Shown: positions 16,043 to 20,625 of the stretch, one piece after another
Layout: the number at the start of each line of letters is the position of its first letter
How positions within the stretch are numbered: the first letter of the stretch is position 1
Source of the DNA: an uncultured Candidatus Saccharibacteria bacterium
GTDB lineage: Bacteria > Patescibacteriota > Minisyncoccia > UBA6257 > CAYTHZ01
Reading direction: 5' to 3'
Assembly (NCBI GenBank): GCA_964437745.1
Contig: CAYTHZ010000001.1
Coordinates: 1 to 33,481 of the forward strand
DNA length: 33,481 bases
Position numbers and translations under genes: made by a program
The notes under the pieces: model-generated
Told to the model about the DNA's origin: nothing
The model's input: the letters and a program-made list of their open reading frames with translations, nothing else
The model's database searches: none

Positions 16043-16125
16043 ATTTTGGAATATAGAATTTAGTATTTTCCGCCAGCGGCGGATTCGCCCTTCGGCGGAA
16101 GAATTTAGAGTGATTACTATATTTT

Positions 16126-20109: not shown

Positions 20110-20166
20110 ATTTACGAAGCAATAATTAAGCGATCTTTCCTGCCTACCTTGACTTCACCGATGAGC

Positions 20167-20349
20167 GCGCCCATAGCTCAGCGGCAGAGCAGTCGTCTTT
20201 ACCCGCCTGCCAAAAGCCGCACCTGTAGCTCAGTGGCAGAGCAAGCGTCTTATAAGCGCTGGGTCGTAGGTTCGATCCCTACCAGGTGCACTTAAAGACG
20301 GCGGGCAGGTAAGCGACACGGGTCCTTGGTTCGAATCCAAGTGGGCGCA
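20167..20349 (+). tRNA. Interrupted tRNA gene: canonical acceptor, D and T arms, but the anticodon loop is replaced by a long helix carrying tRNA-Ile
   Basis: GCGCCCA (20167-73) pairs with TGGGCGC (20342-48), discriminator A. D arm GCTC-AGCGGCA-GAGC. T arm CTTGG-TTCGAAT-CCAAG. Anticodon stem GTCGT (20192-96) / GCGAC (20313-17). Then 20199-20211 pairs with 20300-20312 in 12 of 13 positions. Confidence 0.55.
20219..20290 (+). tRNA. tRNA-Ile (anticodon TAT)
   Basis: 72-nt cloverleaf: GCACCTG/CAGGTGC acceptor, GCTC-AGTGGCA-GAGC, AGCGT-CTTATAA-GCGCT, GGGTC, GTAGG-TTCGATC-CCTAC, discriminator A. CCA is not encoded. Confidence 0.9.
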
Positions 20350-20597
20350 GTTAAGGCGAAATAGACGCGGGTAAGCGCTGGGTTTTATCGGAGGCGGATA
20401 AACTCCGGTTCAATCCTTACCAGGCCTACCAGGCGCGCTTAAAATCAAGGGGTAGGTAAGTCGCTGTCCCTGGTTTAAATCTGGGCGCGTTCAAATTCAA
20501 TGTGAAGTTAGGCGCGGATAAACGTTGAGTTTTGCCGGGGGCGAACAAACCTTGGTTTAATTTATATTGAGCGCGCCAAACTTACGCTTAGCTTATA
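20350..20597 (+). pseudogene. Two decayed tandem copies of (tRNA-Ile 3' part + outer-tRNA 3' part)
   Basis: 20372-20383 is identical to 20253-20264 (TAAGCGCTGGGT). 20407-20424 matches 20269-20286 at 16/18. 20438-20489 matches 20291-20349 at about 70% by eye. 20490-20577 aligns to 20350-20438. Confidence 0.6.
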
Positions 20598-20625
20598 AGA
20601 ATTCTGATTTAATCAGAATTTTCTA
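20598..20625 (+). terminator. AT-rich hairpin terminator after the tRNA locus
   Basis: AATTCTGAT (20600-08) pairs with ATCAGAATT (20612-20), followed by TTCT. It ends at the next ATG. Confidence 0.45.

Follow-up and report, generated by a model that had tools for sequence, protein, structure and literature searches.

What leaves a stack of decayed tRNA 3' halves behind a working tRNA gene, with no integrase gene among them? This question is raised by a locus in a stretch of 33,481 nucleotides (nt) from an uncultured Candidatus Saccharibacteria bacterium (the window, i.e., the whole stretch of DNA analysed: assembly GCA_964437745.1, contig CAYTHZ010000001.1, positions 1 to 33,481). The locus is delimited by the stop codon (20109) of a gene for a D-2-hydroxyacid dehydrogenase and by the following open reading frame (ORF; 20626). 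It carries an intact tRNA-Ile(UAU) gene, flanked on either side by one half of a second tRNA-Ile-like gene and followed by several degraded 3' halves, all on the forward strand. The reading favoured here, to which a probability of roughly 0.55 is given, is that 20350-20577 is a stack of non-functional scars, consisting of the displaced 3' halves and trailers of earlier tRNA-Ile(UAU) generations. At the same level of confidence, the locus would record, layer upon layer, at least three replacements of the tRNA-Ile(UAU) gene by insertion.

A tRNA-Ile gene nested within another

The intact inner tRNA-Ile(UAU) (20219-20290; detected by ARAGORN and by Rfam model RF00005 with 70.1 bits) is the sole functional-looking copy at the locus, where neither search reports anything else. 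It is embedded between the 5' half of the outer gene (O, 20167-20199), which ends in the anticodon-loop CTT, and the outer 3' half (20310-20349), which starts at T36 and is ~97% identical to the tRNA-Ile(UAU) of another genome (G003). When joined by script, both outer halves give a perfect cloverleaf, with 7/7 pairs in the acceptor stem, 5/5 in the anticodon stem, fully paired D and T stems, and an intact T arm. The inner and outer tRNAs differ in three compensatory acceptor pairs, plus other stem changes, which argues for an independent functional history of the inner tRNA.

Only one genome with the same flanking genes was found (L020, GCA_964605615.1), whose downstream protein is 45% identical to that of the window and is the single homologue found for it. 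At the same position, this single available relative holds one uninterrupted tRNA-Ile(UAU), and the first 25 nt and the acceptor stem of this tRNA are identical to the outer halves of the window. Nesting is thus present in the window and absent from this one relative at the same chromosomal site, and the outer gene, judging by its sequence, appears to be the resident gene, still pristine. In four genomes of the same order, the tRNA-Ile(UAU) locus consists of one plain gene, and none of 122 loci encoding the upstream dehydrogenase carries a tRNA. A T4 Rnl1-type RNA ligase (PF09511; L020:886-2028) is encoded a few genes upstream of the tRNA-Ile of the relative and has no counterpart in the window.

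Decayed 3' halves downstream of the nested genes

The sequence-only reading had recognised, in 20350-20597, two progressively decayed copies of the tRNA-Ile 3' part joined to the outer 3' half. These relatives are real. In Smith-Waterman comparisons against 1000 dinucleotide shuffles, 20245-20349 matches 20350-20489 (copy 2) with a score of 42 (z = 10), and copy 2 matches 20490-20600 (copy 3) with a score of 36 (z = 8.6). None of the 1000 shuffles is as good in either case, the similarity being far above the shuffled background. The second match includes an ungapped block of 53 nt (20361-20413 with 20508-20560), and the direct alignment of copy 1 with copy 3 is below significance.

The array was resolved further by cutting it into units that start with TAAG (bases T36 to G39 of the anticodon loop) and include the trailers: u1 (20253-20309, inner 3' part and trailer), u2 (20310-20371, outer 3' half and trailer), u3 (20372-20456), u4 (20457-20518), and u5 (20519-20594). 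Significant similarity was obtained for u1-u3 (z = 8.3), u2-u4 (z = 5.6), and u3-u5 (z = 5.8), as well as for u1-u2, and for no other pair of units; these scores were computed with the u1/u2 boundary one base off, an effect that is negligible. The first three pairs thus reveal a two-unit periodicity.

The individual units hold recognisable pieces of tRNA. Position 20350, previously taken as the start of copy 2, belongs to the trailer of the outer gene (T2, 20350-20371), which ends in a shortened right-arm-like GACGCGGG, is homologous to the trailer of u4, and contains GCGGGTAA, complementary to TTACCCGC in the inner leader. Copy 2 starts instead at 20372 with u3, a decayed inner-type 3' half (20372-20437), and its other described features stand. 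Its first 12 bases (TAAGCGCTGGGT, 20372-20383) show 12/12 identity with 20253-20264, and they are followed by a 23-nt insertion (20384-20406) that forms a CGGAG/CTCCG hairpin. After it comes GGTTCAATCCTTACCAGG (20407-20424), with 16/18 identity to 20269-20286, and a second CCTACCAGG (20425-20433), so that C(C/T)TACCAGG is doubled at 20416-33. The trailer of u3 (T3, CTTAAAATCAAGGGGTAGG, 20438-20456) is, by complementarity in RNAduplex, the stalk arm cognate to the leader arm L1 described below. The outer-type unit that ends copy 2 is u4, whose 3' half (20457-20489) has lost the 3' strand of the T stem, keeps the acceptor strand TGGGCGC, and holds an anticodon-stem strand complementary to 20129-33. 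Its trailer (T4, 20490-20518) ends with GGCGCGGA and matches T2 within the 53-nt block. Copy 3 (20490-20577), which can be aligned to copy 2, is more degraded, as had been noted; its 3' half (u5, 20519-20577) is the most decayed, has the lowest G+C of all units, and carries a hairpin insertion of the u3 kind (20531-20549). Units were also correctly described as ending in GGCGC(G/A), with GGCGCG at 20432-37 and 20484-89 and the acceptor-like GAGCGCGCC at 20569-77.

Outward from the intact gene, the G+C content of the units falls from 0.58 through 0.55, 0.51, and 0.46 to 0.25 (0.377 for the genome), and from u3 to u5 the T arms can no longer form. At all four junctions (20310, 20372, 20457, and 20519) the end of a trailer directly precedes T36; these ends (…CAGG, …CGGG, …TAGG, and …CGGA) are right-arm-like GG(G/A), and the spacing between copies is 19-29 nt. 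The four T36 junctions point to a site-specific process rather than to arbitrary end points of duplication. As the sequence-only reading had stated, neither integrase nor cargo separates the copies, and no ORF of at least 50 residues exists within 20110-20612.

Two kinds of repeat were observed in passing. The motif (A)CGCGGAT(A/T)A is strongly over-represented in the genome (264 copies of CGCGGAT versus 38 expected), forms intergenic arrays with a spacing of ~11 nt (e.g., C43:6142-6179, C43:6789-6826, C26:2281-2334, and C46:5523-5560, where C numbers denote contigs of the host genome), and may be a protein-binding repeat; three weak instances fall in the studied array (20364-75, 20391-403, and 20509-23). 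Doublets of TCCGCC-N3-4-GGCGGA hairpins with AATTT/AGAATTT flanks, similar to repetitive extragenic palindromic (REP) sequences, are found throughout the genome (e.g., at 16070-16110 of the window, C9:2414-2445, and C26:2760-2790). The insertion in u3 (20384-20406) resembles a truncated member of this kind (CGGAGGCGGA core).

An upstream remnant and the pairing of concentric shells

Upstream of the outer gene, an older tRNA-Ile (shell O') has left the end of its 5' half, AGCGA followed by TCTT (20129-20137). Its AGCGA (20129-33) forms 5/5 Watson-Crick pairs with TCGCT (20461-65) of u4. The following leader arm L1 (TCCTGCCTACCTTGA, 20138-20152), a decayed left palindrome arm, is complementary to 20441-20460 (p ~0.02). 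This region (20134-20148) had been proposed to be a faint copy of the 5' junction, which is not significant at the level of sequence similarity (z = 1.2); what it does provide is a pairing partner for 20437-20467.

Pairing energies were calculated with RNAduplex, using 500 shuffles for 20125-56 with 20437-67. The upstream remnant and its leader (20125-56) pair with 20437-67 at -27.3 kcal/mol, which none of the 500 shuffles equals, versus -18.4 to -21.7 kcal/mol with the other three junctions (-18.4 with the inner one). Conversely, the inner 5' junction (20188-218) pairs with its own partner (20291-320) at -28.7 kcal/mol (p = 0.002), versus -15.3 to -23.8 kcal/mol with non-cognate junctions (among these values, -19.3). 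The anticodon-stem strands are GTCGT/GCGAC in the outer gene and AGCGA/TCGCT in the older shell, with three pairs changed on both sides, and one further compensatory pair is found in the stalk. This cognate pairing, together with its compensatory changes, shows that u4 and the upstream 5' tip belong to one older gene, of which u4 is the 3' half.

The stalk 20138-52/20438-56 encloses all the inner parts, as expected of nesting that took place repeatedly. Such cognate pairing is predicted by concentric shells, formed when a gene is invaded again and again, and not by a duplication restricted to the 3' side. Cognate 5'/3' pairs are present for two shells, u3 and u5 having no 5' partner.

The palindrome of the stalk and its spread in the phylum

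The stalk around the inner tRNA is formed by the two arms of a 20-nt near-palindrome, CCCGCCTGCC|GGCGGGCAGG. The left arm (CCCGCCTGCC, 20202-20211) lies in the leader of the inner cassette and the right arm (GGCGGGCAGG, 20300-20309) in its trailer, where it pairs with 20198-20211 in a 13-bp stalk. Elsewhere, the 20-mer occurs uninterrupted: allowing at most one mismatch, 13 sites were found in 10 of 301 sampled genomes of the phylum (Patescibacteria), and the reversed 20-mer, used as a control, had no match in these 301 genomes. In genome G328 the arms abut in an empty copy, followed by the same TAAGCG, and this empty 20-mer has as its neighbour a nested tRNA-Val whose terminal inverted repeat of 18 bp is perfect. 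The G328 locus was retrieved with a junction pattern (two mismatches, 400 genomes), whose other matches are mostly noise. In another genome (L169), an orphan 5' half of tRNA-Leu has its D stem interrupted by the 20-mer, and a GIY-YIG ORF and then an intact tRNA-Leu come after this half, while at locus L174 the 20-mer lies in the T loop of an orphan tRNA-Pro piece. The tRNA-Cys, tRNA-Leu, and tRNA-Thr(GGU) cassettes of the host genome have the same arms in the opposite orientation.

Other palindromes were encountered. The sequence GGCGGATAA was considered as a mobile palindrome and rejected; it is over-represented in the genome (43 copies), but the flanks of many copies suggest coding sequence and few have a palindromic partner, so that it carries no weight by itself. 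On C2 (20917-21000, reverse strand), an orphan outer 5' half of tRNA-Cys carries the near-palindrome TTCCGCCAATGGCGGA in its D loop, and a perfect 16-nt version of it, TCCGCCAATTGGCGGA, is present at C84:1505. Displaced halves with a palindrome in another loop are seen at C2, L169, and L174. A long hairpin (GCGCCTACCTGCC/GGCAGGCAGGTAAGCGCGC) at C19:10575-10625, with no tRNA gene nearby, looks like an empty stalk joined to an anticodon-stem strand of tRNA-Ile.

Nested tRNA genes and mini GIY-YIG cassettes in the host genome

The locus in the window is not the only one of its kind. The 38 tRNAs that ARAGORN detects in the host genome were scanned for copies of their own halves within 500 nt. Nesting within older halves of the same isoacceptor was found for Cys(GCA) on C2, Thr(UGU) on C9, Leu(UAG) on C37, Thr(GGU) on C39, Val(CAC) on C72, and Gln(CUG) on C38, which brings the nested tRNA genes to at least seven, including that of the window; partial remnants accompany Pro(GGG) and Gly(UCC), on C31 and C46. 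The break points at nested loci fall in the anticodon loop or the D arm, and those on C9 and C37 have additional, more decayed copies. Complementarity between leader and trailer is significant (p <= 0.02) for five nested genes, with the stalks of C38 and C39 below significance, and among un-nested genes only for Met and, weakly, Phe. This concentration at nested genes argues that the stalk belongs to the inserted unit and is not a general feature of the tRNA genes of this genome.

The same genome has four mini GIY-YIG genes that are intact and are all provided with terminal inverted repeats. Mini GIY-YIG proteins are encoded at C70:546-752, C38:4055-4252, and C18:181-390, among other places. 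The cassettes of Thr(UGU) on C9 and Val on C72 have ends of the CCCGTTAGA/TCTAACGGG type, in variant form in the case of C9, and ends of this type also bound the mini GIY-YIG gene on C70 and 11 other cassettes of 92-193 nt. A GIY-YIG gene flanked by the hairpin repeat is absent from the locus of the window, while such genes are present elsewhere in the host genome with other inverted repeats and, with the 20-nt palindrome itself, at L169 of another genome.

Several side observations concern these elements. Twelve clean pairs of CCCGTTAGA ... TCTAACGGG are 92-282 nt long (e.g., C70:488-769, C29:2534-2627, and C16:877-982), one of them with a GIY-YIG gene. On C38 (3859-4400), a GIY-YIG gene for a 94-aa protein has the boundaries TTTGAC|CCCGCCCTTGAGA ... 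TCTCAAGGGCGGGG|TTTGAC; its insertion point coincides with CTTTGAC, the programmed-frameshift site of the gene for release factor 2, with a 58-nt duplication of the 5' end of that gene, and 120 nt past tRNA-Thr(CGU). Two decayed 5'-half remnants of different tRNAs (L020:5764-5790 and C9:19880-19905) have in common (A)CT(G/A)CGGGGCAGGGAGCA in place of the D arm, and the motif CGGGGCAGGGAGC common to both has no further copy in the host genome.

The host genome is a metagenome-assembled genome (MAG) of 0.82 Mb in 93 contigs, with a G+C content of 37.7%. Bacterial markers such as DivIC are encoded in it, and the nearest relatives of the dehydrogenase in the window are proteins of Patescibacteria/Parcubacteria MAGs. 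Many of its tRNA genes lie at contig ends, and a scaffold gap of 10 N adjoins the nested tRNA-Thr(GGU) (C39:3172-3260), which suggests that such loci break assemblies. Past the array of the window, an AT-rich inverted repeat forms a 10-bp hairpin followed by TTTC (20600-20620), a possible terminator of the whole tRNA transcription unit, although it was not called by a scan for consensus terminators. The segment 20350-20577 is probably transcribed within the tRNA trailer as far as this hairpin.

A proposed serial replacement of the tRNA-Ile gene by insertion

We infer an insertion mechanism in which a cassette of ~110 nt, without any protein gene, would overwrite the resident tRNA gene. In this cassette, the arms of the conserved 20-nt near-palindrome would enclose a complete tRNA with the specificity of the resident one. 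The landing site would be a loop of the resident gene, which in the window is the anticodon loop, between positions 35 and 36. The inserted copy would then take over, while the old halves would be pushed outward and decay. Repetition of this process would generate concentric shells: the intact inner gene first, then the pristine outer gene (20167-99/20310-49), and then the leftovers of an older shell, comprising a 5' tip (20129-37), a stalk (20138-52/20438-56), and a 3' half (20457-89). Further 3' remnants would be represented by u3 and u5, whose 5' partners were presumably deleted between repeated leaders or lost against the upstream gene. Insertion may be driven by a nuclease directed to loops or hairpins, the candidates being the mini GIY-YIG (Ssn-like) proteins encoded elsewhere in the genome. 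Selection would remove insertions that do not bring the same tRNA, since the tRNA genes appear to be single-copy.

Several observations weigh against this reading. The strict alternation of inner-like and outer-like units is more economically explained by duplication of a block, u3 and u5 carry hairpins of one kind at equivalent places of an ungapped 53-nt alignment, and an offset of 147 nt is common to 20278-20313/20425-20460 and 20361-20413/20508-20560. In addition, the four 3' junctions are matched by only two 5' junctions, so that deletions must be assumed; the joined anticodon loop of the outer gene is one base short or long, giving no clean target-site rule; and no close relative with fewer or more shells was found. 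A local duplication with the 147-nt offset may have contributed to the similarity between 20361-20413 and 20508-20560. The likeness of u3 and u5 may stem either from one local duplication added to the nesting or from alternating cassettes of two lineages with repeated gain of a hairpin, one point for the latter being the palindrome-bearing displaced halves at C2, L169, and L174.

A more specific proposal, which is rather doubtful, extends serial replacement to a homing system. According to it, tRNA minigenes at the dyad of the phylum-wide 20-nt palindrome would home as cassettes that mini GIY-YIG (Ssn-like) nucleases mobilise in trans. Two tRNA-Ile lineages, distinguished by compensatory stem changes, would invade alternately, each being immune to its own nuclease, and the units in 20253-20577 would be the record of four or five invasions.

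If serial replacement is true, the turnover of essential single-copy tRNA genes in ultra-small bacteria is brought about by tiny selfish cassettes, each of which destroys its target and takes its place in a single step, and this would explain the orphan tRNA halves and the odd stem divergence in these genomes. For annotators, it would mean that the tRNA fragments found here are not attachment (att) sites of integrases. The particular value of the locus is that several generations are kept in order, with pairing to show which 5' and 3' pieces match.

Alternative explanations

The main rival, an account that is possible although clearly in the minority, is that a composite segment of ~119-147 nt (inner tRNA end, trailer, outer 3' half, and trailer) was duplicated in tandem once or twice after a single nesting, by unequal recombination or slippage, and then decayed. 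This corresponds to the sequence-only reading, in which the nested arrangement was itself the duplicated unit. Its strength lies in the two-unit periodicity, the colinear alignment of 20245-20349 with 20350-20489, the identical 147-nt offset of the two pairs of blocks given above, the hairpin common to u3 and u5, the smaller number of 5' than of 3' remnants, and the doubled CCTACCAGG at 20416-33, which resembles a duplication seam. However, copies of equal age should decay equally, whereas u2 and the outer 5' half are intact, u4 lacks a T-stem strand, and u3 has acquired a 23-nt insertion and a 9-nt doubling. Moreover, the end point of the duplication would have to hit T36 exactly by chance, and the compensatory pairing of the upstream remnant with the junction in copy 2 is not predicted. 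When a constant period was looked for, two blocks with the 147-nt offset were recovered, between which the internal indels cancel, and Tandem Repeats Finder reported nothing at the locus. The alternation noted earlier stands, while the T36 junctions, the contrast between a pristine outer tRNA and a decayed u4, and the pairing of shells speak against a plain tandem duplication of the fused 3' unit after the nesting.

It is improbable that the fragments, or the split outer tRNA, are a functional RNA, be it a structured trailer, decoy or regulatory pieces, or an outer tRNA that matures once RNases P and Z have cut out the inner one. In favour of such a role, the outer halves are remarkably intact, the G+C content of the region is high compared with the genome, and folding is modestly better than that of shuffled sequences (z = -2.8 for 20350-20600, and z = -3.2 for the part with the nested genes). 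Nevertheless, u3 to u5 have no T arms and match no RNA family, the joined outer halves give no 7-nt anticodon loop, no splicing endonuclease is encoded, and the G+C gradient is what decay predicts. Conservation as functional RNAs in relatives, which the sequence-only reading had named as evidence against decayed copies, was not observed: 20350-20625 has no homologue in the syntenic relative or in 40 genomes of the order. A likeness by eye between the downstream array and the downstream region of L020 was rejected (z = -0.5). No function is indicated for 20350-20577. Two known types of interrupted tRNA were considered and discarded as well. For an archaeal-type intron or split tRNA, EndA (PF01974) is absent from the genome, which holds bacterial genes, while four archaeal controls were positive; for a group I intron, neither RF00028 nor, apart from the tRNA model that detects the inner gene, any other Rfam model matches at its gathering score or at E <= 10.

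Still less probable is the serial integration and loss of integrase-encoding elements (phages, integrative and conjugative elements (ICEs), or islands) at a tRNA attB site, each leaving a 3' copy at attR. Integration sites in tRNA genes include a class located in the anticodon loop, which the stacked 3' parts starting from that loop resemble. In genome G010, a relative, an orphan tRNA 3' end lies past an ORF; there (L021, G010:C2:65900-66100), the T arm, acceptor strand, and CCA, followed by a terminator, stand directly behind the ORF, with no 5' half nearby. Against such scars, the array has no integrase gene, cargo, or ORF between its copies. The working tRNA is complete, with its own 5' half, between both older halves, instead of a fusion of a resident 5' part with an element-borne 3' part, and the flanks are inverted rather than direct repeats. 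Relatives had been suggested as the place to look for an integrative element at this tRNA; the comparison yielded the single uninterrupted tRNA-Ile(UAU) of L020, and no integrase-bearing element lies between the units in the window.

Finally, chance similarity or an artefact of a strain-mixed metagenome bin deserves next to no credence, even in a MAG of 93 contigs with many tRNA genes at contig ends, given that no shuffle reached the observed scores, that the same architecture is found at other loci and in other genomes, and that identity between copies extends over no more than 12 bases, much less than the k-mers used by assemblers, which makes an assembly artefact very unlikely.

Comparison with known systems

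No description of nested bacterial tRNA genes, or of tRNA-linked GIY-YIG palindrome cassettes, was found in searches of the literature. Several known systems have parts of this architecture. The att copies left by phages, ICEs, and islands are similar in their tRNA targets, break points in the anticodon loop, stacked downstream 3' parts, and preservation of tRNA function. However, the locus in the window has neither integrase nor cargo, the insert is a whole tRNA, both old halves remain, nested rather than fused, and the flanks are inverted palindrome arms.

Homing endonuclease genes can be free-standing in tRNA clusters, like SegB of phage T4, and group I introns home in the anticodon loops of bacterial tRNAs. 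Like them, the insert in the window would be a selfish element in or beside tRNA genes that uses an anticodon-loop site and keeps tRNA function. Contrary to them, it has no intron fold or nuclease gene, and function is kept by a replacement gene and not by splicing. REP sequences, REPINs, and miniature inverted-repeat transposable elements are also short non-coding units, palindromic or bounded by terminal inverted repeats, present in many copies and presumably mobilised in trans, but here the cargo is a complete tRNA, the target is a tRNA of the same kind, and repeated hits lead to concentric shells. Archaeal split, permuted, and intron-containing tRNAs, processed by EndA at bulge-helix-bulge motifs, likewise have halves separated in the anticodon loop and a helix that joins the flanks. 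The host of the window, however, is a bacterium without EndA, the intervening sequence is a full tRNA, and joining of the outer halves is not indicated.

The closest published system is the Ssn family. Ssn proteins are single-domain GIY-YIG nucleases of single-stranded DNA with flanking hairpin repeats (NTS/SRM, the SRM being 20-50 nt long), and neither tRNA genes nor nested genes are mentioned in their description (Chenal et al. 2025, PMC11893778). In a similar way, the small GIY-YIG genes of the host have inverted repeats of 16-19 nt, somewhat shorter than SRM, with many scattered cognate palindromes, and a palindrome of defined orientation is kept across taxa. In the window, unlike in the Ssn system, the arms of the palindrome bracket a tRNA gene inside another tRNA gene; if serial replacement is true, a conserved palindrome and mini GIY-YIG nucleases related to the Ssn single-stranded DNA nucleases would thereby be tied to a concrete genomic outcome.

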